A stretch of 64,000 nt of DNA from Clostridia bacterium (lineage in GTDB: Bacteria > Bacillota > Clostridia > Peptostreptococcales > JAAYPU01): the NCBI GenBank assembly GCA_016278615.1, contig JADQBM010000029.1:22668-86667 (forward strand). Direction: 5' to 3'. The position numbers and the translations under genes are program-made. Below, in pieces: positions 8,969-52,901 of this stretch; the first letter of the stretch is position 1, and every line of letters begins with the position of its first letter. Under the pieces are notes generated by a model. The model saw only the letters and a list, made by a program, of their open reading frames with translations. It ran no database searches and had not been told where the DNA came from.

Positions 8969-9164
8969 GAAAGATAATAGATAACAGGTGACAGATAATA
9001 GATGAAAGATAATAGATAATAGTTAAGGTTGGAAATTTGCCATAGCAATTTCCTCATATATTTCTTCAAATTCTTTATAGTATAACTGAAGATTTTGAGT
9101 AACAAAATCATCCACAACTGTTATCTATTATCTGTTATCTATTATCTATCCCTAATCTCTGATC
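8969..9164 (-). repeat. HATH element copy A (heptamer-armed twin-hairpin palindrome), prs|pth spacer
   Basis: Left arm 8969-9028 (AANAGAT heptamers ending AGTTAAGG). Hairpins GGAAATTTGC/AGCAATTTCC (9031-9053) and GATTTTG-agtaa-CAAAATC (9091-9109). Right arm 9113-9164 (TTATCTN heptamers). Strand is orientation relative to copy G. Confidence 0.9.
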
Positions 9165-9174
9165 TTTGTTTTAC

Positions 9175-9199
9175 GGACAACCGCAAGGGTTGTCCCTAC
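9175..9199 (-). repeat. GC-rich TGTAG-hairpin mini-motif embedded in the outer arm of HATH-A
   Basis: The minus strand reads GTAGGGACAACC-cttgc-GGTTGTCC. Arm-like sequence (CTATCTATTGCTATC, carrying the prs stop) resumes on the far side. Confidence 0.7.
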
Positions 9200-9205
9200 G
9201 CATCC

Positions 9206-10162
9206 CTATCTATTGCTATCGAACAATTTGCTCACTGAATCATTGGTATAAATACGGCTTATGGCTTCAGCGAAAATAGGCGCTACAGATAGAACCCTTA
9301 TCTTGTCCATAATCTTACTCTTATTTAGAGGTATTGTATTTAAGACCACCAACTCATCAATAACAGAATCTTGAATTCTACTAATGGCAGGGCCTGAAAG
9401 AACTGGATGGGTGGCACAAGCATATACCTTTTTTGCGCCCAGTTCTTTTAATGACTTGGCACTGTTTGTTATGGTTCCTGCTGTATCAATCATATCATCC
9501 ACTAAGATAACATTCTTATTCTTTATCTCTCCAATAACATTCATGACTTCTGCAACATTTGCTTTTGGCCTTCTTTTATCAACGATCGCTATGGGTGCAT
9601 CAAGGTAATTAGCAAAATTTCTAGCTCTTGTAACACTTCCAATATCTGGGGAAACAACAACAATATCCTCCAACTGAAGATCGCAGAAATATTTGACTAA
9701 AATAGGAACACCCAACAAATGATCTACTGGTATGTCAAAATAGCCTTGGATCTGAGAAGCATGCAAGTCCATGCTTAAGACTCTATTGGCTCCTGAACTT
9801 GTAATAAGATTCGCTACAAGCTTAGAGGTAATGGGATCTCTTGCCTTTGTTTTCCTATCTTGTCTTGCATACCCATAATATGGCATAACTGCTGTAATTC
9901 GTCCGGCTGAAGCCCTTTTCATAGCATCCGTCATGATTAAAAGCTCCATGAGATTATTGTTAACAGGCTCACACGTGGATTGAATGATGTAGACATCTGC
10001 CCCTCTAACGGTCTCATTTATATCAACAGATATCTCTCCATCACTAAAAACGCCAACTGAGGAATTACCCAATTCCTTGCCCATGCATAATGCAATTTCC
10101 TTAGCAAGTTCTTTGTTTGAATTCCCTGTAAATACTTTAATTTCTCGACCAAGATTTCTCAT
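9206..10162 (-). CDS. prs: Ribose-phosphate pyrophosphokinase
   Basis: [11 protein letters not shown] and PRPP loop [13 protein letters not shown]; 318 aa. Confidence 0.95.
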
Positions 10163-10175
10163 TTGTCAATCTCCT

Positions 10176-11549
10176 TCATTCTCTGCTTAGTTTTTTTCTA
10201 TCCACCCAACCCTTAATATGTTTTTGTTTCTCTCTTCCGATACATAATGTGCCTTCTGGCACCTCCACTGTAACGGTGGTTCCAGCAGCCACATACCCTC
10301 TTTTATGAACTTTCAAAGGTGCAACGAGGTTCACATTGCTTCCAATAAAAGCATTGTCCTCGACAATTATTTTTTGCTTCTCTTTTCCATTATAATTGAC
10401 AAAAACAACGCCGCACCCAATATTGACGTTTTTTCCTACTTCAGCATCCCCCACATAGGCCAAATGTGAAGCCTTTGTTCCATCTCCAATAATTGAATTT
10501 TTTATCTCAACAAAATCTCCAATTTTAACATTTTTCCCAATACAACTCCCGGGCCTTAAATAGGCAAAAGGACCTATGGTCGTCCCTTGTTTAACGCTAC
10601 TGTCAATTAGAACTGAATTCTGAATCTGAACATGATCCTCTATGGTTGAGTTTTCTATTCTGCTGTTACTCCCAACCATACAATTCTCTCCGATTACAGT
10701 ATTCCCCTTAATGATCACACCAGGATATATGATTGTATCCATTCCAATGGATACTCCAGAATCTACATATGCATGCTCTGGATTAATAAAAGTTACCCCT
10801 TGATCCATATGCTTTTCCACGATTCGTTTGCGCATAATCCCTTCAGCCTCAGCGAGTTGCCTTCTTGAATTAACCCCTAGTATTTCTTCCGTATTTAAAA
10901 GGCTATAAGTTCCTAATGCATACCCATTCTGAACACCTATTTCAATTAAGTCTGTCAGATAATATTCTCCCTGAACATTATTGGGACAAATTTCTGAAAG
11001 GTGCTTCTTCAATAAATCTCCACGAAAACAATAAACACCTGAATTTATTTCTTTGATTAAGCGTTCTTGATCCTCTGCATCTTTTTCTTCTACAATCTTA
11101 ATAAGCTTCCCATCTGATTCCTTTACAATTCTACCATATCCAAAAGGGTTTTCAACCATTGCCGTAAGAACTGTCATGTCTAAATGGTTGTCTTCATGAA
11201 ATGCCATTAAAGAAATGATGGTTTCCCGTTGAATGAGGGGCATATCACCACACAAAACAATTACATGCCCCTCCTCAGGAATATTTTTTTCTGCCATAAG
11301 TACTGCGTGCCCGGTTCCCATTCGTTTTTCCTGAAAAACAAATTGCAAATTAAAATCCTTCAGACTACTTTCAACTTCTTGTGAACCCTCTCCAATGACT
11401 GCTGTAATATCTTCTACATTTGAAGCTTTTACTTCTTCAAGAACCCGCTCAATCATACTCTTTCCACATATTTTATGCAAAACTTTTGGGAGTCTTGATT
11501 TCATACGGGTACCTGCTCCCGCAGCTAATACAATCGCACTATTTGCCAT
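10176..11549 (-). CDS. glmU: Bifunctional UDP-GlcNAc pyrophosphorylase / GlcN-1-P acetyltransferase
   Basis: N-terminal LAAGAGTRMKS nucleotidyltransferase motif and C-terminal left-handed beta-helix hexapeptide repeats; 457 aa. Confidence 0.95.
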   Translation of the reverse strand: MANSAIVLAAGAGTRMKSRLPKVLHKICGKSMIERVLEEVKASNVEDITAVIGEGSQEVESSLKDFNLQFVFQEKRMGTGHAVLMAEKNIPEEGHVIVLCGDMPLIQRETIISLMAFHEDNHLDMTVLTAMVENPFGYGRIVKESDGKLIKIVEEKDAEDQERLIKEINSGVYCFRGDLLKKHLSEICPNNVQGEYYLTDLIEIGVQNGYALGTYSLLNTEEILGVNSRRQLAEAEGIMRKRIVEKHMDQGVTFINPEHAYVDSGVSIGMDTIIYPGVIIKGNTVIGENCMVGSNSRIENSTIEDHVQIQNSVLIDSSVKQGTTIGPFAYLRPGSCIGKNVKIGDFVEIKNSIIGDGTKASHLAYVGDAEVGKNVNIGCGVVFVNYNGKEKQKIIVEDNAFIGSNVNLVAPLKVHKRGYVAAGTTVTVEVPEGTLCIGREKQKHIKGWVDRKKLSRE

Positions 11550-11711
11550 ATGGATACACTCCTCTTTTTTTCCTGATATTCGGTCGTCCTATATTTAACA
11601 TATTATCCGTTTTTATACTTCAGTATAAGTTTTTCTGAATATTATTTAAAATTAGCAAGGTCTAAATAACAAAAATAGTATATCATTTTTATTTCTCTTC
11701 TAAAAGCGTTT

Positions 11712-11746
11712 AAAAAAGAAACCTCAAATATTTGAGGTTTCTTTTT
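11712..11746 (-). terminator. Bidirectional intrinsic terminator after spoVG
   Basis: AAAAAGAAACCTCAAAtatTTGAGGTTTCTTTTT. Confidence 0.8.
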
Positions 11747-11770
11747 GACAATAATATTATTTCATATGTA

Positions 11771-12073
11771 CTATTCTTCAGCAACTGCTAAAACACTGAT
11801 TTCCGAATCTTCCATCTCTAATCTTGCTTTATCGTATTCACTAAATATCGCTTCTTTTATTTTATTTCTTGTCTCTGAGTTTAAAGGGTGTGCAATATCT
11901 CTATAATCTCCTTCTCCCATCTTCCTACTAGGCATTGCAATAAACAATCCGTTCTGCCCTTCGATTATTTTGATATCATGAACAACAAATTCATCATCGA
12001 ATGTTACAGATACGATTGCTTTCATCTTACCTTCATCGCTAACCTTTCTTACTCTTACGTCAGTTACTTTCAC
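11771..12073 (-). CDS. spoVG: Septation/sporulation regulator SpoVG
   Basis: [40 protein letters not shown] is near-canonical SpoVG. Confidence 0.95.
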
Positions 12074-12190
12074 ACTGACTCACCACCTTTCTTAGCCATC
12101 CTTTAATGTTTTAAAGACTATAAAACAAAAACACGAATTTTTTGTTATATTCTCCATATTTCGTAAATATCCTTCTTTTTTTTTCGAATT

Positions 12191-12997
12191 TTATAGATTA
12201 TTATTAGGATGTGCCCGGATAATCTTGTTTTCCACATCCACTTCTTCTATAAAAATTAAAGAAACATACTCTTCTACGAGCTTCTTCTCTGGCTTTTTGG
12301 TTGAAATCAGTACGCCAATTCCTACAACTTCTATATCAAATTCAGTTAAAATATCAACGATCCCTCTTGCAGTGCCGCCGCCCTTCATAAAATCATCAAT
12401 TATAATGGCTCGACTTCCAGGCTTAATGGCTCTTTTGGATAAAGACATTTTTTGTATCCTATCAGTGGAACCGGATATGTAATTAATGCTAACAGTCGAT
12501 CCTTCGGAAACCTTGCTTTCTCTTCGTGCAACCACAAGGGGTAAATTTAGAGCATCTGCTGTCATAACAGCAAGAGGAATTCCCTTTGTTTCCACCGTTA
12601 CCACATAGTCCGCTTTTTTATCAGAAAACTGAGTCGCAAAAACCTCTCCTGCTCTTTTAATAATAGACGAGGTAAACATAATATCTGAAGTATATAAAAA
12701 ACCACCTGCCAAAACTCTATTTTCATCCCTTAATTTCAAACATAAATGATCCAGCAGAATTTTTGTGTCTTCTTTGGAAATAACGGGCATATACTTCACG
12801 CCTCCGGCAGCTCCTGAAAGTGTCTCTATTTTTCCCAGCTTCATATTTTCCATAATCTTCTTTGCAATTACAATATCTTCGCTGATACTGGATTTAGCAG
12901 AATCAAACTTATTTGTAAAGAAGTTAAGGGTAAATATTTTATTTGGATTTGAACTGAGTATTTTAATAATGGCACCAATTCTTTCGTTCCTTTTCAT
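12191..12997 (-). CDS. purR: Purine operon repressor PurR
   Basis: PurR N-terminal DNA-binding domain plus PRT fold with IIDDFMKGGGT; 268 aa; sits next to spoVG as in Bacillus. Confidence 0.9.
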   Translation of the reverse strand: MKRNERIGAIIKILSSNPNKIFTLNFFTNKFDSAKSSISEDIVIAKKIMENMKLGKIETLSGAAGGVKYMPVISKEDTKILLDHLCLKLRDENRVLAGGFLYTSDIMFTSSIIKRAGEVFATQFSDKKADYVVTVETKGIPLAVMTADALNLPLVVARRESKVSEGSTVSINYISGSTDRIQKMSLSKRAIKPGSRAIIIDDFMKGGGTARGIVDILTEFDIEVVGIGVLISTKKPEKKLVEEYVSLIFIEEVDVENKIIRAHPNNNL

Positions 12998-13097
12998 CTC
13001 AATCCTCCAAAGACTAAATAAATCACTTATTTATCAATCTCGCTCTATGTTTTCATGTGTATATTCTTGGATATATGTGGGAAATATTATTTTAATA

Positions 13098-13127
13098 TTG
13101 ACAATAAATACATATCAATCATACTAT
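13098..13127 (+). promoter_or_regulatory. Candidate murC promoter
   Basis: TTGACA (13098-13103), 18-nt spacer, TACTAT (13122-13127), in the purR/murC divergent region. Confidence 0.3.
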
Positions 13128-13213
13128 ATAATAATGATACCCTATCTACTGTTAATGAACAAGATGAACTTTAGTATAAACAACAGGTTTTCTATACTAG
13201 GAGGTATTCTAAA

Positions 13214-14614
13214 ATGAATTGCGATCAAGAAGCAAAATATTATCACTGTATTGGAATAGGCGGCATCGGGCTTAGTGCAATAGCGGAAATCTTATTAGCC
13301 AAAGGTTATAAAGTATCGGGTTCCGATATAAAAGAATCTGATATCACTCAATCTTTGGAAAACCATGGCGCTACTATTTACATAGGACATGATGAATCCA
13401 ATATTTCAAATTGTGACACTGTCATTTATACCTCAGCAGTATCAGATGACAATCCTGAATTAATATCAGCTAGAAAAAAGAATATTCCTACTTTATCTCG
13501 TGCTGAAATGCTGGGTCAAATTATGAAGGATTATTCTCACAATATCGCTGTTTCTGGAACTCATGGAAAAACAACAACGACTTCTATGGTCTCGCTAATA
13601 TTGGAAGATGGCCATTTTGATCCTACTATTTTAGTAGGTGGAAAATTAGATAAAATTGGGGGAAATGTTAAAATTGGAAAAGGTCCTTTTTTAATAACGG
13701 AAGCCTGTGAATATATGGATAGTTTCTTAGAACTAAATCCAAAAATAGAAATCATCCTAAATATTGATTCAGATCATTTGGATTACTTTAAAGACATTGA
13801 TCACATCGTAAGTTCTTTCCAGAAATTTGCGAATTTAGTCCCTATAGATGGTTTAATTGTGGCTTATAGTGCCAATGCTTTTGTGAAAAGTATCATCCAT
13901 AATGTATCTTGTAAGACCGTTACTTTTGGTTTTGATGATAGCTGTGACTACTACGCAAACCATATAGAATTCAACTCTGAAGGAATGCCTCTATTTGATG
14001 TATATTATTCTGGCGAAAAATTATGTGCCATACAACTGCTGGTTCCTGGAGAACATAATATTAGCAATTCTCTTGCAGCCATTGCATGTTGCCATACTTT
14101 AGGGGTCTCTATAGACGTAATTGTTAAAACCCTTGAAAGCTTTGAAGGGACTAAAAGAAGATTTGATATCATAGGCATTACGCCAGATCTTTTAAAGGTA
14201 GTGGATGATTATGCACATCATCCAGAAGAAATCAAAGCAACGCTGAGCGCCTGTAAAAATGTCCCCCATAAAAAATTATGGTGTGTCTTCCAGCCCCATA
14301 CTTATACAAGAACAAAAGCTCTTTTCGAGGAATTTACAGATGCTTTTGATTTTGCGGATGGTATTATTATTACAGATATTTATGCCGCCAGAGAAAAAAA
14401 TATCTATAAAATAAAAGCATCAGACTTAATCGATGAAATTAAAAAGAAACATCCTAATAAAAAAGATATTTATTATATCTCAGATTTCGAAGATATCGCA
14501 GATTTTATAATAGAAAAAACCAACCCAAAAGATCTTGTCATAACCATGGGTGCTGGGGATGTTTATAAGGTAGCAGAGCGGATTATGGAGAAGACGAAAA
14601 CAACCGAGAACTGA
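13214..14614 (+). CDS. murC: UDP-N-acetylmuramate--L-alanine ligase
   Basis: GIGGIGLSAIAE Rossmann motif and P-loop GTHGKTTTTSM, with Mur ligase middle and C-terminal domains. The last codons and stop lie in the outer heptamers of HATH-B. Confidence 0.95.
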   Translation: MNCDQEAKYYHCIGIGGIGLSAIAEILLAKGYKVSGSDIKESDITQSLENHGATIYIGHDESNISNCDTVIYTSAVSDDNPELISARKKNIPTLSRAEMLGQIMKDYSHNIAVSGTHGKTTTTSMVSLILEDGHFDPTILVGGKLDKIGGNVKIGKGPFLITEACEYMDSFLELNPKIEIILNIDSDHLDYFKDIDHIVSSFQKFANLVPIDGLIVAYSANAFVKSIIHNVSCKTVTFGFDDSCDYYANHIEFNSEGMPLFDVYYSGEKLCAIQLLVPGEHNISNSLAAIACCHTLGVSIDVIVKTLESFEGTKRRFDIIGITPDLLKVVDDYAHHPEEIKATLSACKNVPHKKLWCVFQPHTYTRTKALFEEFTDAFDFADGIIITDIYAAREKNIYKIKASDLIDEIKKKHPNKKDIYYISDFEDIADFIIEKTNPKDLVITMGAGDVYKVAERIMEKTKTTEN

Positions 14615-14786
14615 GAACTGGAAACTTAAAACTGAGAGATAATAGATAAGAGATAATAGATAACAGTTAAGGAAGGCTTTTGCGTAGAATACGCAAAAGC
14701 CCTCTTTTTTATCTGATGAAAGTTTTGTTATACAAAACTATCCTCAACTCTTATCTATTATCTGTTATCTTTTATCTCTCACTTAT
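14606..14786 (-). repeat. HATH element copy B, murC|amidohydrolase convergent spacer
   Basis: Ten in-phase heptamers at 14606-14672, starting inside the murC 3' end. Hairpins GGCTTTTGCGTA-gaa-TACGCAAAAGCC (14675-14701) and AGTTTTG-ttata-CAAAACT (14721-14739). Right arm 14740-14786. Confidence 0.9.
14675..14710 (+). terminator. murC terminator formed by the first mini-hairpin of HATH-B
   Basis: 12-bp perfect stem GGCTTTTGCGTA/TACGCAAAAGCC followed by CTCTTTTTT. Confidence 0.75.
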
Positions 14787-14795
14787 GCCTTTTAT

Positions 14796-15970: not shown

Positions 15971-16294
15971 TAAGGATATAAGATAAGAGATAATAGATAA
16001 TAGATAATAATTATGGATGATTTTGTTTCACAAAATCTAGATTGTCTCATAATCTGTCCTGAATTATTACCAAGATTTAATCTTTAGTATCAATAAAAAT
16101 GAAGATTCTGGAACAAAATCCACCTCAACTCTTGAAGCCCTAGCTCAAATCTTCGATTTGATGTGCAGGTGTCATACAAGTGGAACTTTCTAATCTATGA
16201 TTAGTTAAAGTTGCCATTCGCTCTGTGGAAACTCTCCAATCTTTGATTGGTAAGAGTTTTTCAGTTATCTGTTATCTATTATCTATCTCTAACC
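15971..16294 (+). repeat. HATH element copy C (long variant with nested module), HAD|amidohydrolase spacer
   Basis: Left arm 15971-16016. GATTTTG-tttca-CAAAATC (16018-16036). Second degenerate GATTCTG-gaa-CAAAATC (16104-16120). Nested module 16131-16263. Right arm 16264-16294. Confidence 0.85.
16131..16263 (+). repeat. Nested hairpin module (long form) inside HATH-C
   Basis: CTTGAAGCCCTAGCTCAAATCttcGATTTGA..CATACAA, then two related hairpins (AACTTTCTAATCtatGATTAGTTAAAGTT and AAACTCTCCAATCtttGATTGGTAAGAGTTT), ending GTTTTTCAG. It sits between the junction and the right arm. Confidence 0.8.
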
Positions 16295-24490: not shown

Positions 24491-24632
24491 AATTTTGTGT
24501 AACAAAATATCCTTAATTATTGAAGACCTAACTCAAATCTATGATTTGAAATGTAGGTCTCATACAGAAACTCTTCAATCTTTGATTGGCTAAGAGTTTT
24601 TCAGTTAATTGTTAATTCTTAATTCTTCATTG
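24491..24632 (-). repeat. HATH element copy D (partial: one hairpin, nested module, TTAATTN arm; no left arm), ahcY|mtaD spacer
   Basis: ATTTTG-tgtaa-CAAAAT (24492-24508). Junction CCTTAATTA. Module 24520-24603. Four TTAATTN heptamers at 24605-24632, ending 8 nt from the ahcY stop. Confidence 0.75.
24520..24603 (+). repeat. Nested hairpin module (short form) inside HATH-D
   Basis: TTGAAGACCTAACTCAAATCtatGATTTGAAATGTAGGTCTCATACAG, then AAACTCTTCAATCtttGATTGGCTAAGAGTTTTTCAG. The ends are colinear with the C module, and one hairpin unit is missing. Confidence 0.8.
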
Positions 24633-28283: not shown

Positions 28284-28790
28284 GGAAATCGAAATTTAAG
28301 TTTAAGCTTGAGTTAAGTAGCTTTATGTTTATTTTAATCATTTTTTTCTGTTTCATTGATTATTTTTTGAAAAATATATAAACTAAGTGATGTGATAAAA
28401 AATGGAAATTGAAGTTTAAGTGTAAGTTTAAGTAAAAATGTGGAAGCTTAAGTGTAAGTTCAAGTGAAAAGTGGAAGTATAAGTGTAAGTCATGTAGGGG
28501 CTGGTCCTGTGCCTGCCCGAAGTAAGTAGGAGTGAAAGTGAAAGTTTAAGTTTAAGTATAAGCGAAAAGTTTGTAGGGGCTGGTTCCTGTGCCTGCCCGA
28601 AGTAAGTAGGAATGGTGGAAGTGTAAGTGTAAGTAAAAGTGGAAGTTTGAGTTTGTAGGGGGCTGGTCCTGTGCCTGCCCGACAAAGAGAAGCTGGAGTC
28701 TAAGTTTATGTGGAAATATAAGTATAAGCGGATTTACACTTAACACTACAACTCTAAGTGTTGTTCAACTATACTTATACTTCATAATAT
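28284..28790. repeat. AAGTNN-hexamer repeat region with three ~80-nt tandem units and a terminal mini-palindrome (HATH-related variant J)
   Basis: Two tracts both start GGAAAT(C/T)GAA(A/G)TTTAAGT (28284, 28404). Three units of hexamer tract plus a 38-39-nt GC motif start at 28493, 28572 and 28654. Terminal inverted arms GAAATATAAGTATAAG (28713-28728) and CTATACTTATACTTC (28769-28783) surround the hairpin ACACTTA/TAAGTGT. Confidence 0.85.
28493..28682 (+). repeat. Three copies of the GC-rich TGTAG-hairpin motif in region J
   Basis: TGTAGGGGCTGGTCCTGTGCCTGCCCGAAGTAAGTAGG at 28493-28530 and 28572-28610 (one extra T); truncated copy at 28654-28682. Stem GGGC(T)GG/CC(T)GCCC. Confidence 0.85.
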
Positions 28791-31474: not shown

Positions 31475-31778
31475 GGCATCTTCCCCCTGACAGCTTCTCA
31501 TAATACTATATGCAGGGAATTAAAAAAAATAGAACTTTATTATCAATTGAGAATAATGGATAAGCGGATTTTATAGAGAAGTATCTTAAAATTCCTAGTT
31601 ATGGAATAAATATATTAGTAATTCGCCTTGTTTATTATCAACGTTTATGTTAAGATTAAAAAGCTAATCATTGTTTTTGATTGGTGGATTAATTTATTTT
31701 TGACCAAACTCTCTTTGATTTATTAGAGCGAGTCTCAGGAATTTTGAAATCCCAATAAATCATGGAGGTACACTATAT

Positions 31779-31961
31779 ATGGCAGACAAATCAATAACTT
31801 GCAAAGATTGTGGATCAGAATTCATTTTTAATGAAAGTGAACAAGCTTTCTACAAAGAAAAAGGTTTTGAAAACGAACCTCAAAGATGTCCTGATTGCAG
31901 AGCAGCAAGAAAACAACAAAGAGGAAACAGAAACTACAACAGTGGTGGAAATAGGTATTAA
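31779..31961 (+). CDS. Small zinc-ribbon protein (CxxC..CxxC, zf-trcl-like)
   Basis: ITCKDCGSEFIF..EQAFYKEKGF..PQRCPDCRAARK; SD GGAGG upstream. Confidence 0.75.
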   Translation: MADKSITCKDCGSEFIFNESEQAFYKEKGFENEPQRCPDCRAARKQQRGNRNYNSGGNRY

Positions 31962-32014
31962 TTAAAACCTATCGACAGTCATAGCGTAGTCAGAATTGTT
32001 GTGTATTAAAACAT

Positions 32015-32049
32015 AAAAGTGGATTTTGTAATCCGCTTTTATATTTTAT
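32015..32049 (+). terminator. Terminator after the zinc-ribbon gene
   Basis: AAAAGTGGATT-ttgt-AATCCGCTTTT followed by ATATTTTAT. Confidence 0.65.
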
Positions 32050-32106
32050 AATTTTTAGAAATAAGTTTATATTAGATATTAAGTAGTAATATAGGAGGTG
32101 CTTTTT

Positions 32107-34600: not shown

Positions 34601-34738
34601 TAGATAACAGATAATAGATAACAGTTAAGGTGAGTTTTGCTATGCAAAACTTAATCTTAATTTATAATAGATGAAATTTTGCTCATGCAAAATATTCCTA
34701 AACTATTATCTGTTATCTGTTATCTATTATCTTTATGG
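34601..34738 (-). repeat. HATH element copy E, fabZ|pgm spacer
   Basis: Left arm 34601-34630. AGTTTTGC-tat-GCAAAACT (34633-34651). ATTTTGC-tcat-GCAAAAT (34676-34693). Right arm 34705-34738, ending 3 nt from the fabZ stop. Confidence 0.9.
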
Positions 34739-37669: not shown

Positions 37670-37695
37670 AATACTTAGTTTAATAGTCCATTGGA

Positions 37696-37866
37696 AAACA
37701 ACGCGAGATTATACATGATTAGGTATAAGCCGAAGCGGAAATCATAAGGAAGGTCATGTCCTTGTGAGAAACTGACAGGCAAAAGAAACGTTGTTTGATG
37801 GAACTCTGGAGATACTGTATATAAACAGAGCCAACGAGGAAATAACCAACAGGCAAAAAGACAGAG
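37696..37866 (+). promoter_or_regulatory. Tandem glycine riboswitch (two aptamers)
   Basis: Aptamer 1: P1 AAACAACG (37696-37703) pairs with CGTTGTTT (37789-37796); internal GCCGAAGCGGAAA; a 9-bp P3b hairpin; CTGACAGGCAAAAGAAA. Aptamer 2: ACTCTGGAGA..GCCAACGAGGAAA..CAACAGGCAAAAAGACAGAG, with P1 CTCTG/CAGAG (37804-37808/37862-37866). These match the glycine-aptamer signatures CUCUGGAGAG, CACCGAAGGGGCAA and CUCAGGCAAAAGGACAG. Confidence 0.8.
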
Positions 37867-37909
37867 GAGTATAATGACGCTTTTATTAGCGTTGCTATAT
37901 TCTTTTTTT
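37866..37909 (+). terminator. Expression-platform intrinsic terminator of the glycine riboswitch
   Basis: GGAGTATA-atg-ACGC [ttttatta] GCGT-tgc-TATATTCT followed by TTTTTT. Its 5' strand starts at the last base of aptamer-2 P1. Confidence 0.6.
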
Positions 37910-37992: not shown

Positions 37993-39330
37993 ATGAAAAT
38001 GTTATTAGTTGGAGCTGGTGGTGTTGGTGAATCTATACTTAAAATATTAAAGGTTCGAGATCCAAATGGCTCATGGCTGAAAAAAGTTATTGTTTCAGAC
38101 TATGATTTAAAACGTGCAGAAGAAGTTGTCAATCACTTAGGAGAAGATTCCAGATTCATTGCAGAAAAAGTCAATGCAAAAGATATTAATGCAATCATTG
38201 ATCTCATAAAAAAACATGAATGTGACTTCGTTATGGATGCAGCTGCACCTTTCGTTTCCAATAATATCTTTGATGCTGCTTTTTTAGGAAATGCGAATTA
38301 TGCTAATATGGGAACTTGGTCGGTCCCTTTAGAAAAGCCAAAGTACGGTTATGGTCTTGAAAACAACTTTAGTGAATCTATGGCAGCATATAATTTCGAC
38401 CAGCATGAAGAGTGGCAAAAAAAAGGTATTATGGCTTGTATTTGCTTAGGCATTGATCCCGGAGTCGTGGATGTATTTGGAAGATTTGCGGCAGAGTATC
38501 TTTTTGATGAAATCCACGAAATCCATGTAAAGGACGGCGGAAATCTTCGAATTCCAGGAACTGGTGATTATGATATTGCCTTTGGTTTTAATGTTTGGAC
38601 CGTTTTAGATGAGGTTTTAAATCCTAATGTGGAATGGAGTAAAGATAAAGGCTTCTTCATAGAACCTGCTTTCGCAGGACAAGAAACGTTCCAACTACCT
38701 GTAAGTGTTGGTTCAAATACAATGGTAAAGGTTGAACATGAAGAAACTGTTCTTATGCCTCGGTTCTTACAAAAATATGGTCTGAAGAAATGTAGCTTTA
38801 AAATTAGTCTAGATGATAGCTTGGTTAATGCACTTAAAGTCATTGATGGTTTAGGACTCCGAAGTCTTGAAGATGTAGATGTGGGGGGTGTAAAAGTTAG
38901 ACCAAGAGATGTTGTTGCTGCAGTTGCACCACAACCTAAGGATCTGGGCAGTGAAATGATAGGGAAAATGGTAGTAGGCATACATTGTATTGGAATTAAA
39001 AATGGCATGAAGCGTGAAATCTTTATGTATCAGCCTTTTGATAATCAAGAATCCATGGAAAAGTGGGGCATGCAAGCAGTGGTTGCTCAAACTGGTTTTG
39101 GTGCTGCCATTGGAATCGAAATGATTGGAAGAGACTTCTGGAAAGATGCGGGTGTATACAGTCCCGAGTACTTCAATCCCATCCCCTACCTTGAAATTAT
39201 GGATGAGTCCGATTTTGAATACGGCATCGTTGAAATGGATTCAGAATATAAAGCAAAACAAGATAAAGAAACAATGGCAGAAATATTTGAGAAAGCAAAA
39301 ATGAAAAACGTAATGAACAATGAAAAATGA
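37993..39330 (+). CDS. Saccharopine dehydrogenase-family NAD(P)-binding oxidoreductase
   Basis: N-terminal Rossmann motif MLLVGAGGVGESI; 445 aa with family-typical length and layout. Preceded by a glycine riboswitch. The last codons lie in the HATH-F arm. Confidence 0.75.
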   Translation: MKMLLVGAGGVGESILKILKVRDPNGSWLKKVIVSDYDLKRAEEVVNHLGEDSRFIAEKVNAKDINAIIDLIKKHECDFVMDAAAPFVSNNIFDAAFLGNANYANMGTWSVPLEKPKYGYGLENNFSESMAAYNFDQHEEWQKKGIMACICLGIDPGVVDVFGRFAAEYLFDEIHEIHVKDGGNLRIPGTGDYDIAFGFNVWTVLDEVLNPNVEWSKDKGFFIEPAFAGQETFQLPVSVGSNTMVKVEHEETVLMPRFLQKYGLKKCSFKISLDDSLVNALKVIDGLGLRSLEDVDVGGVKVRPRDVVAAVAPQPKDLGSEMIGKMVVGIHCIGIKNGMKREIFMYQPFDNQESMEKWGMQAVVAQTGFGAAIGIEMIGRDFWKDAGVYSPEYFNPIPYLEIMDESDFEYGIVEMDSEYKAKQDKETMAEIFEKAKMKNVMNNEK

Positions 39331-39507
39331 ATAATGAACAGTGAGTAATGAATAATGAACAATGAATAATGAATAATGGAGGTTGGTTTTGCTTTTAGCA
39401 AAACCTTCTTTTATAAATGCAAGCTTTTGGAACAAAAGCCTCCATAATTATTCATTATTCATTATTCATTATTCATTGTTCATTGTTAATTGTTCATTGT
39501 TAATATT
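39310..39507 (-). repeat. HATH element copy F (ANAATGA/TCATTNT arm flavour), saccharopine-DH|lrgB convergent spacer
   Basis: Ten in-phase ANAATGA heptamers at 39310-39379, including the CDS stop TGA at 39328-39330. GGTTTTGC-tttta-GCAAAACC (39385-39405). GCTTTTG-gaa-CAAAAGC (39423-39439). Nine in-phase TCATTNT-type heptamers at 39445-39507. Confidence 0.9.
39385..39414 (+). terminator. Terminator of the saccharopine-DH-family gene formed by a HATH-F mini-hairpin
   Basis: GGTTTTGC-tttta-GCAAAACC followed by TTCTTTTAT. Confidence 0.6.
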
Positions 39508-41943: not shown

Positions 41944-41957
41944 TCTTTAGAAATAGT

Positions 41958-42010
41958 AAAAGCACTAAAAGAGTTTTTCGAAAACGAAATCCTTTTAGTG
42001 CTTTTTAATT
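41958..42010 (+). terminator. Terminator after the aspartate aminotransferase gene
   Basis: AAAAGCACTAAAAG..CTTTTAGTGCTTTT 14-bp stem with an inner GTTTTCGAAAAC palindrome, followed by TAATTTT. Confidence 0.75.
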
Positions 42011-42173
42011 TTGAAGCTTCAAGAATATTGGTGTCTGTTTAACAAATTGTAATAAGCAATTTTTATTTGTAAAAAATCTTTTCTTTTCCTTCTTTAAGTT
42101 TGTCTTTTTTTGAATCCACAATCATAGAATTTACAATGAAATAAAAACAAGGGAAAAAATAGAAAGGAAAAAT

Positions 42174-42202
42174 TTGCAATTTATTAGAAAGGGATGTATA
42201 AT
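42174..42202 (+). promoter_or_regulatory. Candidate sigma-A promoter P1 far upstream of the hydrogenase operon
   Basis: TTGCAA (42174-42179), 17-nt spacer, TATAAT (42197-42202). It lies about 460 nt before the hydC start. Confidence 0.4.
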
Positions 42203-42395
42203 GATAATTAATTAACAATGACATTTAAGTGCACTTCTAAAAAATTAATTTCGTTCTAAATTTTCTAACAATCTACTTGTTAAAGTAAAATTTTTACCAT
42301 TGAATATTCTTTTCTATAACAATTTTCTTTCTAAATGAATTACTATTTAATTCTCTCTCAACTAAGTTTAGTTATCCGGCATAGCTGACAATTTT

Positions 42396-42404
42396 TGTTA
42401 TAAT
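42396..42404 (+). promoter_or_regulatory. Candidate extended -10 promoter P2 upstream of the hydrogenase operon
   Basis: TGtTATAAT (42396-42404). The -35 is poor (CCGGCA). Confidence 0.3.
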
Positions 42405-42666
42405 TTTATAAAGTTTTCAGCTATTGGAATAAACAGAGTTCTTTGCTTAAAGTGACATTTTTATCAGCACTTGAAGCTTAGAAATCGTTATCCAGGGGCT
42501 TTTCAATTCTTTCTTCAATGCTTACTTCAATGCTTTGAAGCATTAGAATTGTTAGCCATCGGGTAAGTGTTTCTTTGGATTCAACAATCATTTCTTATGA
42601 ACCCAAAGAAACGATAACAGTACCTTTTATTCTTAAAGTACTTTTAAAAAGAGAGGTGATTTAATC

Positions 42667-48055: not shown

Positions 48056-48070
48056 GTTCAAAATTAAAAA

Positions 48071-48107: not shown

Positions 48108-48300
48108 CAGATAAAAGATAATGAAAAGAAAAAAGAGATAAGAGATAACAGATAATAGATAACAGTTATGGAGGATTTTGATTCTCAAAATCTTCATTTT
48201 ATTTTAATAGAATTGCTAGTTTTGCCTAAGCAAAACTTACCTTAACTATTATCTGTTATCTGTTATCTCTTATCTTTCTTTAACCTATTATCTCTTATCT
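48108..48300 (+). repeat. HATH element copy G (reference orientation), hydA|trmB convergent spacer
   Basis: Left arm 48108-48171. GATTTTG-attct-CAAAATC (48174-48192). AGTTTTGC-ctaa-GCAAAACT (48218-48237). ACCTTAACT junction. Right arm to 48300, containing the trmB stop codon. Confidence 0.9.
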
Positions 48301-48939: not shown

Positions 48940-48950
48940 TGTATCCTCCA

Positions 48951-49126
48951 AGAATTAGAGATGTGAGATAATAGATGAAAGATAATAGTTAATAGTTAAG
49001 GTGAGTTTTGCTTAGGCAAAACTACAATTTGAATAAAATATAATGGAGATTTTGAGTATCAAAATCATCCTAAACTATTATCTGTTATCTCTTATCTGTT
49101 ATCTGTTATCCATTTATCTTACTAAG
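48951..49126 (-). repeat. HATH element copy H, nrdG|trmB spacer; close inverted copy of G
   Basis: Left arm 48951-49001. AGTTTTGC-ttag-GCAAAACT (49004-49023). GATTTTG-agtat-CAAAATC (49048-49066). Right arm 49077-49126. The reverse complement aligns with G through arms and core. Confidence 0.9.
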
Positions 49127-49156
49127 TTAAACAAAGAGCAGTCTCCACTGCTCTTT
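49127..49156 (-). terminator. Terminator after nrdG
   Basis: AAAGAGCAG-tctcca-CTGCTCTTT overlapping the stop codon. The minus strand continues TGTTTAAC. Confidence 0.7.
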
Positions 49157-49838
49157 ACCGTACAATTACTTCCTGAACATAGCTTGCCAAACTTTGCTTC
49201 ATTTTATTTAGCTCATTTTGAGCAAATGGGGTATAAGCTTTATTGTCATCTAAAAGTACGCCACTTCTTTTAAAATTTTGAATGCAAAACCGCTTGGCAT
49301 TTAAAATTGATTGAGCAATATCAACCAAATCCTCTTCTTTTATTATTTCTTTATGGACCGTGGTCCGAAACTCATAAGAAATATGAGAATGCTTTATTAT
49401 ATCAATACTTTCTTCAATCTTTCGTATGTCTACACTTGCACCCACTACCTTCTGATATTGTGATAAAGGTGCCTTCACATCCATTGCAATATAATCTATT
49501 ATATCTTCGTCTAATAGTTTTTTAAATAATATAGGGTTCGTCCCATTTGAATCTAATTTTACAAGAAACCCCATGCTCTTTATTTCTGCTATAAAATCAG
49601 CAAGATCCCCGTTTAAGGTGGGTTCTCCTCCAGAAATACAAACACCATCTAGATATTTTTTTCTCTTATTCAGATGCTTGAAAATTTCATCTGGGTCCAT
49701 GACGTTCTTTGTTTTATTTACCAAATCAGGATTGTGGCAATACCCGCAACGAAAATTACACCCTCCAGTAAAAAGCACTGTGCATATTTTTCCCGGATAA
49801 TCAATAAATGAAGTCTTAACTTGTCCTAAAATCTCCAT
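49155..49838 (-). CDS. nrdG: Anaerobic ribonucleotide reductase activating protein (radical SAM)
   Basis: CNFRCGYCHN radical-SAM cluster motif; directly downstream of nrdD. Confidence 0.9.
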   Translation of the reverse strand: MEILGQVKTSFIDYPGKICTVLFTGGCNFRCGYCHNPDLVNKTKNVMDPDEIFKHLNKRKKYLDGVCISGGEPTLNGDLADFIAEIKSMGFLVKLDSNGTNPILFKKLLDEDIIDYIAMDVKAPLSQYQKVVGASVDIRKIEESIDIIKHSHISYEFRTTVHKEIIKEEDLVDIAQSILNAKRFCIQNFKRSGVLLDDNKAYTPFAQNELNKMKQSLASYVQEVIVR

Positions 49839-49840
49839 GT

Positions 49841-51970
49841 TTACCCTACTTGAGTGATGGTTTTAATTTTCTGGTTATTTTTTAAGCTATTTTCCACAGA
49901 AAATTCAATTCTATCTTTGAATTCCTCCTGTTTTCCTCTGTTCCAAGACTGTACTGGGCGATGAAATCCTACAACTCTGGACCAGACTTCCGCTTCTTTA
50001 CCGCAAGTAGGACATTCAAAATGTTCTCCTGCAATATAGCCATGCTCCAAACAAATTGAAAAAGTTGGTGTCACCGTAATATAAGGAATGGCTGTATTTT
50101 CCATTACTTTCTTAATAAATGATTTGCAAGTCTCAATGTCCTCAATTTGTTCACCTAAGAAGCCATGGAGAACAGTTCCTCCCGTATAAAGAGTTTGAAG
50201 TTTTTCCTGCCTTTCGACCGCTTCGAATATATCATCCGTACTATTCACTGGAAGCTGCGTTGAGTTTGTATAGTATGGCTCATCTTTACCTTGTGTGAAA
50301 ATATTTGGGTAAACCCTTTTATCCAGCCTTGCAAATCTATAGGATGCTCCTTCTGCTGGAGCCGCCTCCAGATTCCATAGGCTTCCCGTTTCTTCCTGAT
50401 ATATCTGTATCACTTTATTCATGAATTCCATAATTTCAACTGCAAATTCATTGCCTTCATCTGTATTTAGATCTACACCTAAAAGATTTAGACAGGCTTC
50501 ATTCATTCCATTAAGTCCAATAGTGGAGAAGTGATTTTTAAAGAATTCGCCCGTTGCATTTTTGATATCTTGTAGGTAATACTGTGAATAAGGATACAAT
50601 CCTAATCCCATGTACTGTTCCAAAATGATCCGCTTACTTTCACATATTTCCTTAGCATATCCCATGAGCTGATGCACCTTTTGTTTGAATTCTTCTTTTG
50701 TCTTGGAAACATGCCCAATTCGTGCCATATTAAGGGTAACCACGTTAATGGACCCTGTTAATGGATTCGCCCCAAAAAGTCCGCCTCCGCGTTTACGAAG
50801 CTCTCTGTTATCTAACCTAAGCCGACAGCACATGGAACGAATGTCTTCTGGAGATAAATCTGAATTTAAGAAATTAGCAAAATAAGGGGTTCCAAACTTT
50901 CTTGTCATTTCCATAATTTTATTAACGGAATCCGATTCCCATGGAAAATCTTCGGTAATGTTCACGGTTGGGATAGGAAAACTAAAAGCCCTTCCTGCAC
51001 CATCCCCCTCCATCATTACTTCACTATAAGCGATGTTAAACATATCCATTTCTTTTTGGAATTCCCCATAGGTTTTATCTAACAACTCCCCGCCAATCAT
51101 AACCGCCTGATTTTTCAAAATAGCATGGGGGGTAATATCAAGGGTTATGTTTGTAAAGGGTGTTTGAAACCCTACTCGCGTGGGGACATTTAAATTGTAT
51201 ATAAATCGTTGCACCGCTTTTTTAACTTGCTTATAATCAAGCTGATCATAGTGGATAAATGGAGCAAGGTAAGTATCTACACTTGAAATCGCCTGAGCAC
51301 CAGCAGATTCTCCTTGCAATGTATATAACAGATTGGCGATTTGCATTAGGGCTGATTCAAAATGTTTGGGTGGCTTAGACTCAATTTTGCCCTTTGCACC
51401 TCTAAACCCATTTCTTAAAAAGGCCTCTAAATCCCAACCACAGCAATAAGGTGCCAGAAGTCCTAAATCATGTATATGTAAGTCACCTTTGATATGAGCA
51501 TCTCTTAATTCTTTTCTATATATTTTATGAAGCCAATACTTCTTGGTAATGCTTTCAACAATATGATTGTTAAGCCCTTGAAGGGAAAATCCCATATTGG
51601 CATTTTCGTTGACGCGCCAATCTTCAAGAGATACGTATTCTTCAATCATTTTTTCCGCATCCATAAATAGATTTTTAACTTCACGAATTTCCTCATGTTT
51701 CTTTCTGTAGATGATATAAGCTTTAGATGTCTTTGCATGGCCTTCTTCTATAAGGACCTTTTCAACAATGTCCTGTACATCTTCCACAGACGGTATACTG
51801 GCATTATAAGTTTCATTAAGGATTTCTTCCACAATATTGGAAAGCCTCTGTGCCTGCATCTCATCTTGGCCACCAACAGCATGTGCTGCTGAAAAAATGG
51901 CATTTTTTATTTTGATTAAGTCAAAATCAACAATTTCCCCTGTTCTTTTCTGAATCTTTGTTACTGCCAT
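49841..51970 (-). CDS. nrdD: Anaerobic ribonucleoside-triphosphate reductase
   Basis: ATP-cone N-terminus, class III core, C-terminal CPTCG zinc ribbon and glycyl-radical loop. ATG 51970 (AAGGGAG 7 nt upstream) is preferred over the track TTG at 51991. Confidence 0.95.
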   Translation of the reverse strand: MAVTKIQKRTGEIVDFDLIKIKNAIFSAAHAVGGQDEMQAQRLSNIVEEILNETYNASIPSVEDVQDIVEKVLIEEGHAKTSKAYIIYRKKHEEIREVKNLFMDAEKMIEEYVSLEDWRVNENANMGFSLQGLNNHIVESITKKYWLHKIYRKELRDAHIKGDLHIHDLGLLAPYCCGWDLEAFLRNGFRGAKGKIESKPPKHFESALMQIANLLYTLQGESAGAQAISSVDTYLAPFIHYDQLDYKQVKKAVQRFIYNLNVPTRVGFQTPFTNITLDITPHAILKNQAVMIGGELLDKTYGEFQKEMDMFNIAYSEVMMEGDGAGRAFSFPIPTVNITEDFPWESDSVNKIMEMTRKFGTPYFANFLNSDLSPEDIRSMCCRLRLDNRELRKRGGGLFGANPLTGSINVVTLNMARIGHVSKTKEEFKQKVHQLMGYAKEICESKRIILEQYMGLGLYPYSQYYLQDIKNATGEFFKNHFSTIGLNGMNEACLNLLGVDLNTDEGNEFAVEIMEFMNKVIQIYQEETGSLWNLEAAPAEGASYRFARLDKRVYPNIFTQGKDEPYYTNSTQLPVNSTDDIFEAVERQEKLQTLYTGGTVLHGFLGEQIEDIETCKSFIKKVMENTAIPYITVTPTFSICLEHGYIAGEHFECPTCGKEAEVWSRVVGFHRPVQSWNRGKQEEFKDRIEFSVENSLKNNQKIKTITQVG

Positions 51971-52004
51971 ATCCACACTCCCTTGTGACAAACTTTTTGA
52001 AATA

Positions 52005-52020
52005 GTACAATATATAGTAT
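52005..52020 (-). promoter_or_regulatory. Candidate NrdR box upstream of nrdD
   Basis: GTACAATATATAGTAT matches acaCwAtATaTwGtgt at 13 of 16 positions, including all strongly conserved ones. It overlaps a TATACT -10-like hexamer on the minus strand. No second box was found. Confidence 0.35.
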
Positions 52021-52140
52021 AACACTGCCTATCCTATTTAAACAACAATTAATTATGATAGTTTCTGAGTAATTCTAGGAGGTTTTTCTTCATTTTTCTT
52101 CTGTTTTCTTTAATATTCATCAAGTTTTGCATTCCAAATA

Positions 52141-52170
52141 TAAAAACTGCTGATTCTTCTCTCAGCAGTT
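52141..52170 (-). terminator. Terminator after the small L,D-transpeptidase gene
   Basis: Minus strand AACTGCTGA-gagaagaa-TCAGCAGTT followed by TTTTATATTT. Confidence 0.75.
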
Positions 52171-52254
52171 CAAAATTCAACAAATAATTATTAAATATTT
52201 CCGAAATATTTTTTATGTATAACACAGATATTAGGTCCATGGTTTGAATGCCTT

Positions 52255-52743
52255 CTATTCATATATGAATACAGGAGTACCCAATTCAACTCGATCCCAT
52301 AAATCTTTTATATCTTCATCATCCAGGGAAATACATCCTGCAGTCCAGTCAAATACACTGCTTTTACCATGAATTCCTAGTTTTCCTCCCAATTGCGTTG
52401 ACCAATCCGGTCTTTTTTTATCTTCTATTGCCTTTTTGATTTTATCATATTCATCTTCATTAATGAGGCCATCTTTTAAGCCTCTTTCTGCATCTTTTAG
52501 ATTAGGATAACTTAGCCCTAAAAATAAGGTGAATCGGCTCATTTGATTTTTAGTGCAGATATAATATTCACCTTCAGGGGTTCTTCCATCCCCTTCTCTT
52601 ATCTTGTTTCCATTGGGTGAAAACCCTAATCCAATCTGAAAATGTCGGGTACATCCACCTTTCTCCCACAATTCCAGTTTCCGATCTGATTTATATATTT
52701 TTATGATTCCTTGGGAATTATTCGTTTCCATGGTTTCTTCCAA
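52255..52743 (-). CDS. Small L,D-transpeptidase-fold protein (YafK-like)
   Basis: LGIHGKS..TAGCISLDDEDI resembles the YkuD/YafK catalytic His and Cys region; 162 aa. Confidence 0.7.
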   Translation of the reverse strand: MEETMETNNSQGIIKIYKSDRKLELWEKGGCTRHFQIGLGFSPNGNKIREGDGRTPEGEYYICTKNQMSRFTLFLGLSYPNLKDAERGLKDGLINEDEYDKIKKAIEDKKRPDWSTQLGGKLGIHGKSSVFDWTAGCISLDDEDIKDLWDRVELGTPVFIYE

Positions 52744-52772
52744 CTCTTCCCCCTCCTTTACTTTCTACTTGG

Positions 52773-52901
52773 TTAGATAATAGATAAATAGATAATAGTT
52801 GTGGTAGGATTTTGTTGCACAAAATCTTCATTATAAGATGAAAGTTTTGCGTGCAAAACTATCCGTAACTGTTATCTCTTATCTATTATCTCTTATCTTT
52901 G
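52773..52901 (+). repeat. HATH element copy I, DUF4015-like|L,D-transpeptidase spacer
   Basis: Left arm 52773-52804. GATTTTG-ttgca-CAAAATC (52808-52826). AGTTTTGC-gt-GCAAAACT (52843-52860). Right arm 52871-52901. Confidence 0.9.

Follow-up and report, generated by a model that had tools for sequence, protein, structure and literature searches.

Heptamer-armed hairpin elements form a mosaic family of intergenic repeats in Clostridia

We analyzed a 64,000-nucleotide stretch of a Clostridia bacterium genome (contig JADQBM010000029.1, positions 22,668–86,667; hereafter the window), in which nine intergenic spacers, named A to I, carry copies of a repeat made of tandem heptamers disposed as inverted arms around small hairpins. 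The copies form a multi-copy family with a fixed grammar, whose conserved unit is a half-unit of ~54 nt that combines elsewhere with other modules. On balance, the family is probably an old, non-autonomous, mosaic intergenic repeat of Anaerovoracaceae-like Clostridia, akin to the REPINs (doublets of repetitive extragenic palindromic, REP, sequences forming hairpins) and BIMEs (bacterial interspersed mosaic elements), within the general class that comprises REP/BIME/REPIN sequences and MITE-type repeats (miniature inverted-repeat transposable elements). In Proteobacteria, Neisseria, streptococci, and cyanobacteria, short intergenic repeats are well documented, and heptamer arrays as such are already known in other phyla. 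In the literature and databases searched, we found no prior description of this family, and small intergenic repeats of anaerobic Clostridia were likewise not met there.

In the orientation of copy A, the full plan reads (AGATAAY)n, AGTTAAGG, a hairpin AGTTTTGC..GCAAAACT, an AT-rich spacer of 16–37 nt, a GATTTTG-N5-CAAAATC hairpin, CCNNAACT, and (RTTATCT)n, the junction between the GATTTTG hairpin and the right arm being nTCCnnAACT. It is found in six copies, A, B, E, G, H, and I, referred to as canonical. A conserved TGAAG motif, the specific junctions AGTTAAGG and CCNNAACT, and the two distinct hairpin sequences keep a constant order among copies. Alignment of the halves reveals that both are inverted versions of one plan: a 7–8 bp TTTTG/CAAAA hairpin (consensus RRTTTTG(C)..(G)CAAAAYY), then 3–4 nt, the conserved 3' flank CCNNAACT, and in-phase RTTATCT heptamers. 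Because the full element consists of two such half-units inverted around the AT-rich spacer, either strand can fold into a long stem capped by two hairpins. The folding of the repeat into a long stem with small hairpins, put forward in the original prediction, is indeed recovered for E, H, and I, whose folds (RNA on both strands, DNA on the + strand) display a long stem with two or three small capping hairpins and z-scores of −7 to −12.

A covariance model of the half-unit, spanning 54 positions and named R1, was run on the window with filters off and returned 13 strong half-units at 38–82 bits: both halves of the six canonical copies and one half of C. Twelve of them score 51–82 bits, the variant half of A being the one at 38 bits. 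Weak matches correspond to F (27 and 23 bits), the right end of C, and the hairpin of D. Since R1 finds no half-unit across the 64 kb beyond the nine reported copies, the list given in the original prediction is complete. Direct reading bears out the sequences at the nine sites, and the orientations assigned to them (C, G, and I forward; A, B, D, E, F, and H reverse) are correct. Tandem Repeats Finder (TRF) detected paired arrays of period 7 or 14 at every site, AGATAAN on the left and NTTATCT on the right, and a period-7 scan yielded 22 arrays in the window versus 0–2 in shuffled sequence. The arm-plus-junction pattern AGATAANAGATAANAGTTNNGG, with at most one mismatch allowed, has 12 matches in the window and none in 100 dinucleotide-preserving shuffles. 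The most similar pair of cores in the window is that of G and H (87% identity), the other pairs being 65–82% identical.

The nine spacers had been proposed to share one architecture. This is the case for the six canonical copies (Table 1), while the other three depart from it: F belongs to a subfamily with AATGAAY arms, C contains an inserted module, named module X, and D lacks the left arm and the second hairpin. Alignment of C and D delimits module X as a segment of 80–130 nt with two or three hairpins, nested between the junction and the right arm in both copies; its matches are in the window only. It is marked by the sequences TTGAAGnCCTAnCTCAAATCT..GATTTGA.., CCAATCTTTGATTGG, and AACTCTT..AAGAGTT. 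Half-units combine and nest with other modules.

Table 1. Positions and composition of the heptamer-armed elements in the window
Feature	Position	R1 half-units or matches (strand, bits)	Location	Remarks
Copy A, full element	8972..9147	9087–9140 (+, 81.6); 9000–9057 (−, 38.2)	between prs (9206–10162, −) and pth (8389–8952, −)	variant GGAAATTGC..GCAATTTCC as second hairpin; 7 and 4 heptamers in the arms
Outer RAACTGA-like heptamer array	14602..14636 (+)		abuts left side of copy B, overlaps murC end	TRF period-7 array 14602–14637
Copy B, full element	14637..14777	14717–14770 (+, 75.8); 14644–14705 (−, 51.7)	fills convergent spacer between murC and amidohydrolase gene	GC-richer hairpin followed by T-run scores terminator-like, + strand, 14675–14701
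Copy C, composite	15974..16287	15988–16041 (−, 75.5); 16226–16284 (+, 28.4)		left arm and GATTTTG hairpin half 15988–16041, AT-rich stretch, degenerate hairpin half, module X 16133–16262, right arm 16261–16287
Copy D, partial	24491..24632	24491–24521 (23.9)		hairpin and junction 24491–24521, module X 24525–24605, TTAATTN heptamer arm 24603–24632; period-7 array present
Copy E, full element	34602..34732	34602–34655 (−, 72.9); 34671–34725 (+, 55)	fills entire fabZ–pgm spacer	RNA fold z = −9.4 and −12.5; identical sequence in separate Logan contig L087
Copy F, subfamily	39311..39504	39419–39467 (27.4, weak); 39357–39409 (22.6, weak)	convergent spacer	AATGAAY/RTTCATT arms, AATGGAGG junction; hairpins GGTTTTGC..GCAAAACC and GCTTTTGG..CAAAAGC; TRF period 7/21
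Copy G, full element	48109..48300	48143–48196 (−, 80.3); 48214–48268 (+, 60)	convergent spacer after hydrogenase gene and trmB	last heptamers overlap trmB stop codon
Copy H, full element	48959..49111	49044–49097 (+, 76.1); 48973–49027 (−, 51.7)	between nrdG terminator and trmB ribosome-binding site	
Copy I, shortest full element	52775..52898	52839–52891 (+, 72.8); 52775–52830 (−, 61)	between terminator-like hairpin and ribosome-binding site of YkuD gene	16-nt spacer

Region J (28411–28685), originally taken for a variant of the same family, proved to be something else: it is composed of hexamer arrays around three copies of GTAGGGGCTGGTCCTGTGCCTGCCC and represents a distinct family with a GC-rich hairpin of the GTAG type. 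Hairpins of this GTAG-headed, GC-rich family adjoin copy A (GTAGGGACAACCCTTGCGGTTGTCCG, 9165–9206) and occur three times in region J (GTAGGGGCTGGTCCTGTGCCTGCCCG, 28490–28685). They sit in hexamer (AAGTKN) arrays and are also present in other spacers of two related genomes, on contigs L089 (10620–10810) and L098 (1230–1612). This family looks more like classical REP sequences than the heptamer-armed family does.

The arm heptamer, AGATAAY, has a conserved 6-nt core and a pyrimidine as seventh base on that strand. The choice of T or C at this seventh position is uncoordinated between arms, with 7 of 20 Watson-Crick pairs versus 32% expected; the arms are therefore probably complementary because both arrays repeat one 6-nt core and not because each pair is maintained. 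The arm sequence differs by subfamily (AGATAAY, AATGAAY, TTAATTN, GGTCTCA, and GAGTAAC), and in related metagenomic lineages analogous elements are built on other heptamers, such as GAAAGTR, CAGATRT, and TAATAGT. Two metagenome contigs, L047 and L050, are 99% identical over 3.2 kb and differ by a 209-nt indel in an AAGAATT heptamer array upstream of an amidohydrolase gene (L047:1800–1930 versus L050:150–500); the extra DNA is a heptamer-armed segment with AGAGATT/AATCTCT arms, which constitutes a strain-level polymorphism of an analogous element. In more distant relatives (L057:11150–11520, L058:5455–5900, L059, and L080), up to ~250 nt of GAAAGTR heptamers directly follow the same amidohydrolase gene and have YACTTTC arms as partners across a different hairpin core, with CTGAYAA (TAACTGA-type) arrays nearby. 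Together, the elements with other heptamers and the 209-nt indel between near-identical contigs indicate that a fast turnover of heptamer-armed spacers is general in the group.

The window covers a housekeeping stretch from a sporulating member of the Clostridia whose genome has ~35% GC, with the genes mfd, pth, prs, glmU, spoVG, purR, murC, tex, mreB, fabZ, spoIIID, nrdDG, and trmB. Housekeeping or other ordinary annotations apply to 46 of its 47 open reading frames (ORFs), the one at 56254–56826 being without a Pfam match, and the best named homologues of its proteins come from Anaerovoracaceae such as Anaerovorax, Aminipila, and Ihubacter. The elements make up ~3% of the window and fill many of the longer spacers that hold a gene 3' end. 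Among spacers of at least 100 nt, they occupy 6 of 17 tandem, 3 of 6 convergent, and none of 8 divergent ones (hypergeometric chance of missing all eight, ~0.04), and all nine copies adjoin at least one gene 3' end. In tandem spacers, the usual order is a stop codon, a separate terminator-like hairpin, the element, 10–25 nt, and a ribosome-binding site. The asymmetric core is found in either orientation relative to the flanking genes, the GATTTTG hairpin lying upstream in four and downstream in two of the copies in tandem spacers.

Syntenic DNA of relatives, retrieved by a protein-guided search, contains occupied as well as empty orthologous sites. Organism 1 is represented by contigs L088 and L098 (ENA ERZ27249388), with 82–88% DNA identity to the window, and apparently also by L094 and L099 (JGI 3300027640); L098 and L099 are identical over the prs–pth spacer. 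Organism 2 is an Anaerovorax metagenome-assembled genome (MAG; contigs L089, L095, and L100) with ~77% identity to the window, and organism 3 is Eubacteriales SRP241341 (L101, whose spacers match L044), 81–85% identical to organism 2. Contigs L096 and L049 are more distant. The clearest case is site H: organism 1 carries the element at the same place and in the same orientation with a 91% identical core, while the site is empty in L089 of organism 2, where the same terminator is followed by 25 nt to the ribosome-binding site, exactly the distance in the window minus the element. Site G is occupied in L088 (core 83–88% identical), and organism 2 has a GTAG-type hairpin in its place. At site E, the L094 contig of organism 1 stops inside an arm, L095 of organism 2 retains two heptamers and AGTTAAGG, and L096 shows a clean 27-nt spacer. 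The twin-hairpin copy of site B is represented in organisms 2 and 3 by a single-hairpin version and in L049 by a plain bidirectional terminator only; at site C, the composite of the window is matched by other heptamer arrays in organisms 2 and 3 and by a 49-nt spacer in L049. Finally, site A holds a different 363-nt mosaic without half-unit in organism 1, an F-type single-hairpin element in organism 2, and 48 nt in organism 3, and site I holds a hexamer-armed palindrome in organism 2. The pattern is one of insertion-like presence and absence: the comparison of occupied and empty spacers, which had been recommended as a means of defining the ends and any target-site duplication, gave clean boundaries and empty sites. 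For strain-level polymorphism of the window copies themselves, exact-protein look-ups returned the same sample only, or nothing.

Some copies are kept at one site across species with a conserved core. The retained orthologous copies, G, H, and E, have cores 83–91% identical, compared with 78% for the adjacent trmB gene. Between the window and L088, the H element shows 85% identity over its full length and 91% over its core; identity is ~88% in the aligned G core and ~40% in a short non-element stretch around the ribosome-binding site. Orthologous arms differ in length by ~22 and ~37 nt, which are roughly whole heptamers. Core conservation at or above that of trmB, the one adjacent gene measured in full, suggests either a host constraint (on a terminator, a stabilizer, or a protein site) or homogenization among copies.

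The repeats are not confined to the window; such confinement would have refuted the original prediction. An exact-pattern scan of 185,579 species genomes gave at least 42 loci, on which R1 was then used at E < 0.01. Among the matches listed there are at least 54 half-units, all from Clostridia and distributed on many contigs of six genomes besides that of the window: Anaerocaecibacter muris CLA-AA-M11 (Pumilibacteraceae, loci of ~50% GC; at least 31), Clostridiales bacterium AS22ysBPME_288 (at least 8), the Anaerovorax odorimutans MAG BM5_bin.11 (at least 8), Eubacteriales SRP241341_co1_263 (at least 3), Tissierellales SM3-B4.1 (26–28% GC; at least 3), and Clostridiales Hm464_bin68 (at least 1). 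The half-unit is also found in two metagenomic relatives. The GC content of the loci in other genomes ranges from 26 to 53%, and 53 of the 54 half-units among the matches listed lie outside long ORFs. Distant Clostridia thus have the half-unit in common in flanks that cannot be aligned, the alignment between the window and loci of other genomes being confined to the elements. In the 50 distinct half-units, the hairpin is 98.8% paired with changes on both sides in 5 of 7 pairs, figures that lean toward structure because the alignment was fitted to the model. In other genomes, half-units frequently stand alone and are joined to other modules: the MAGs of Anaerovorax and Eubacteriales have a GGGCAACC..GGTTGTCC hairpin as partner, the AS22 and Tissierellales genomes have outer arms of GGTCTCA or GAGTAAC, and in A. 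muris the half-unit is part of a composite repeat of ~400 nt. Pattern matches in Pirellulaceae, Kaistella, Chitinophaga, and similar genomes have no heptamer-armed half-site and no R1 match and appear to be due to chance. Plasmid and viral-contig collections gave no real match: of four viral pattern matches, three had no R1 score and one a marginal 22 bits, and a single phage match of 41 nt, inside a gene, was attributed to chance.

The family also appears distinct from the named repeat families, as had been surmised. In the window, the glycine riboswitch is the only Rfam match above the gathering threshold, and an Rfam search by E-value over G and H returned chance matches only, mostly to eukaryotic hairpin RNAs such as microRNA precursors. 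A full-text search of the literature, including the exact heptamer strings, produced no description, only ClosTron primer sequences and general papers on heptameric simple sequence repeats (SSRs).

The REP, BIME, and REPIN sequences of Proteobacteria are mobilized by Y1 transposases called RAYTs (REP-associated tyrosine transposases), and their unit is a GC-rich imperfect palindrome of 20–40 nt headed by GTAG. REPINs are REP doublets that form hairpins (PMC3116915). As in REP sequences and REPINs, pairs of inverted units fold here into one long hairpin, six copies being pairs of inverted half-units. The mosaics with other motifs, the extragenic position at gene 3' ends, the avoidance of divergent promoter regions, and the old, diverged copies without enzyme are also shared with REP sequences and BIMEs. 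Unlike REP sequences, the present units have neither a GTAG head nor a GC-rich palindrome but an AU-rich TTTTG/CAAAA hairpin followed 3' by CCNNAACT, are flanked by tandem heptamer arrays that REP sequences do not have, and reside in Clostridia. MITE-type repeats, such as the Correia elements of Neisseria, the enterobacterial ERIC, the pneumococcal BOX and RUP, and bcr1 of Bacillus cereus, have inverted ends, fold strongly, and lie in intergenic regions where they are co-transcribed. By these general descriptions, the likeness extends to a size of 100–330 nt, inverted ends, strong predicted folding, an intergenic location, and presence/absence polymorphism. Indeed, arms and junctions are inverted complements of each other, and insertion polymorphism is seen as empty sites for H (L089), E (L096), and B and C (L049) and as the E remnant (L095). 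Unlike MITEs, the elements terminate in repeat arrays and not in unique terminal inverted repeats; they have no recognized sequence similarity to the families named and match no Rfam family, and no insertion sequence was seen among the fetched sequences.

Tandem 7-nt repeats of cyanobacteria, the STRR (short tandemly repeated repetitive) sequences, were reportedly described by Mazel et al. in 1990. The heptameric SSRs GGGAATC of Xanthomonas and GGGGAYT of Nostoc are intergenic, keep the same gene context between species, and vary in length, and in Xanthomonas there are 70–75 cases of convergent array pairs on opposite strands that are capable of forming stem-loops; these G-rich arrays were studied as quadruplex formers, and no conserved hairpin-junction core between paired arrays is described (PMC4692102). 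The over-representation of heptamers and the slippage hypothesis are established background (Mrazek et al. 2007, cited in PMC4692102 and PMC4679880). The arms in the window resemble these arrays as tandem 7-nt intergenic repeats whose copy number varies between relatives, but unlike the Xanthomonas and Nostoc arrays they are rich in AT, and a defined junction and hairpin always adjoin them. The TAACTGA arrays of Beggiatoaceae, Cyanobacteria, and Bacteroidetes are likewise intergenic and often end just upstream of start codons; they are direct repeats of 2–6 units without inverted partners or hairpins, are not reported in Firmicutes, and have a patchy distribution that suggests horizontal spread by a mechanism that is not known (PMC4679880). 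In parallel, the elements in tandem spacers of the window leave ~10–25 nt before the next ribosome-binding site, TAACTR is part of the junction, a RAACTGA-like array lies beside copy B, and a related MAG has CAGTTNT arrays. The relationship of the TAACTGA arrays to the heptamer-armed family is only a lead.

If the family is indeed an old, non-autonomous mosaic repeat, its heptamer arms would grow and shrink through replication slippage, and copies would have spread by means of a trans-acting factor encoded elsewhere in the genome or by recombination between copies. Such a factor would most plausibly be an enzyme that recognizes the hairpin and its 3' junction on single-stranded DNA. Once resident, the elements would be transcribed with their neighbors as orientation-independent stem-loops and might sometimes replace terminators.

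Several results weigh against this reading. Pfam scans and synteny reveal no transposase or integrase gene in the window, in agreement with what had been stated from the sequence, and no HUH, transposase, integrase, or RAYT gene was detected in the window or any fetched locus. Approximate IS200 TnpA and Escherichia coli RAYT queries gave chance matches only in tblastn, the best of them (on L010) falling in a region whose long ORFs resemble, on by-eye reading, an ABC-type permease and ATPase; clustering of ORFs across the fetched loci identified no recurrent neighbor gene. There is no consistent target-site duplication around the six canonical copies, whose ends cannot be fixed to the base inside arrays, although a TA duplication is possible at the H site in L088. 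No pair of copies in the window exceeds 87% core identity, so nothing points to recent movement. Finally, selection for a host function accounts for the high conservation of orthologous cores no less well than a selfish origin does.

Alternatively, the elements might primarily be cis-acting RNA or terminator modules of the host, which we consider unlikely. The two AU-rich hairpins, each with a U-rich half of the spacer behind it in its own reading direction, would form a compact bidirectional terminator or a 3'-end stabilizer, the long arm stem could act as an RNase III site or exonuclease barrier punctuating operons, and copying would be secondary. The consistent vicinity of gene 3' ends and the absence from divergent spacers are what this model would predict, as is a symmetric structure that works in either orientation, and the conservation of the orthologous cores, spacer included, exceeds that of the neighboring gene. 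At the B site, the element stands alone in the window in a place where a relative carries a plain bidirectional terminator, and two hairpins are terminator-like: the GC-richer one of B (second on the + strand) and the GATTTTG hairpin of G (first on the + strand). The others have few GC pairs and mixed tails; most hairpins have 1–3 GC pairs and weak U-tracts, and 2 of 12 reading directions pass a simple terminator scan. Moreover, a separate hairpin stands beside A, G, H, and I (a recognizable terminator at G and H, a terminator-like hairpin at I, and a GTAG-type hairpin without U-tract at A), so that the element is not obviously needed for termination there. The spacers of the E and H sites measure 27–57 nt in relatives, those at E being devoid of any terminator, and the same 54-nt sequence in distant orders argues for copying over local evolution.

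Somewhat less credible is the possibility that a dedicated protein uses the half-unit as its DNA site, with the heptamers acting as iterons and the hairpin with CCNNAACT being recognized or nicked in a structure-specific way. HUH Rep origins and the inverted terminal repeat of adeno-associated virus (AAV) consist of a hairpin or a T-shaped double hairpin beside tandem initiator-binding repeats, with a conserved site adjoining. The T- or Y-shaped fold and the hairpin-iteron layout recall them as a functional analogy only, which implies no membership; unlike them, the present elements are chromosomal and multi-copy and have no Rep gene nearby. The protein might be a domesticated nuclease or a nucleoid protein and could itself generate the arrays. 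Such a site would agree with a grammar kept in genomes from 26% to 53% GC, with a conserved 6-nt core beside a free seventh base, with a conservation that spans the entire core and not the stems alone, and with the different heptamer families that follow the same hairpin type in related genomes. Against it, no candidate protein was found in the window or the fetched loci, and the arms are wholly different between subfamilies, which would call for many specificities or for none at all. Heptamer arrays are, besides, generally attributed to polymerase slippage (PMC4692102, PMC4679880).

More speculatively, and in our view improbably, the hairpin, CCNNAACT, and in-phase heptamers could be the substrate of a trans-acting enzyme that copies the half-unit and lays down the 7-nt arrays, for example an HUH/Y1-type or other hairpin-specific nuclease or a polymerase activity. 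If so, the heptamer arrays would be an enzymatic product and not the outcome of passive slippage, and through this family the heptamer repeats of cyanobacteria (STRR), Xanthomonas, and Beggiatoaceae (TAACTGA), so far unexplained, would become tractable.

That there is no element as such, ordinary terminator hairpins having independently accreted heptamer SSRs by slippage and resembling each other by compositional convergence in an AT-rich genome, is very improbable. In its favor, many bacteria have an excess of heptamer SSRs (PMC4692102, PMC4679880), orthologues differ in arm copy number, and other heptamer arrays occupy the same spacers in related lineages. The shared junctions, two hairpins, and TGAAG in constant order, the clean presence/absence boundaries, and the same half-unit inside unrelated composite repeats of a 50% GC genome stand against it, and the R1 scores, the distribution, and the shuffle test, in which the arm-junction pattern never appeared, already largely refute it.

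Several other assignments were considered and set aside. An internal promoter is not supported: the conserved TATAAT-like box that precedes the GATTTTG hairpin is directed antisense to the neighbor gene in 7 of 9 copies, and promoter-like counts equal the shuffle expectation. The ATG in ATGAAGATTTTG is missing from A and C and is not preceded by a ribosome-binding site, which discards a small ORF. Fur, DnaA, or CtsR boxes do not fit the period of 7 rather than 6 or 7-1-7, and other subfamilies have unrelated heptamers. An integron attC site would read 5'-RYYYAAC...GTTRRRY-3' and lie in a cassette array beside an integrase, whereas the order here is 5'-AGTTAAGG...CCNNAACT-3', GTT being the 5' and AAC the 3' member; the last base of GTTAAGG is G and not Y, and the copies are scattered among housekeeping genes with no integrase.

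The window holds other features. A glycine-GGAnGA riboswitch (Rfam RF03166, 144 bits, 37688–37868, + strand) lies upstream of a saccharopine-dehydrogenase-like gene (37993–39330), after which copy F is found. A 115-nt palindromic non-coding segment (61285–61410) between an SLH/Big_5 surface-protein gene and a LuxR-type regulator gene is 86% identical to L019:7343–7456 of the Anaerovorax odorimutans MAG, has a fold z-score of −3.7 and no Rfam match, and may be another small repeat or a small RNA. The same surface-protein gene (57119–61258, 1379 aa) contains a 345-bp tandem repeat (58857–59500, 1.9 copies, 91% match). Two long spacers, 41944–42666 (723 nt) and 31502–32097 (596 nt, upstream of infC), are without element, Rfam match at the gathering threshold, or long ORF.

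The elements have practical consequences for Anaerovoracaceae-like genomes. Contig L001, which corresponds to window positions 9122–11742, ends inside an arm of copy A, and L094 ends 27 nt after fabZ, inside the arm of the E orthologue; since independent short-read contigs end inside heptamer arms, the elements break assemblies. Given this and their share of the window, they will affect operon prediction, the calling of terminators and promoters, and MAG contiguity, and they constitute an annotation and assembly hazard in these genomes. As a probably old, non-autonomous mosaic repeat in which a defined hairpin and junction are coupled to heptamer arrays, the family provides a clean comparative system for the question of 7-nt repeats, and experiments should be possible, as the carrier Anaerocaecibacter muris CLA-AA-M11 is listed as an isolate strain. 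It would thereby serve the old question of what lies behind the excess of 7-nt repeats in the intergenic DNA of bacteria, and of whether a passive process or a dedicated activity makes them.

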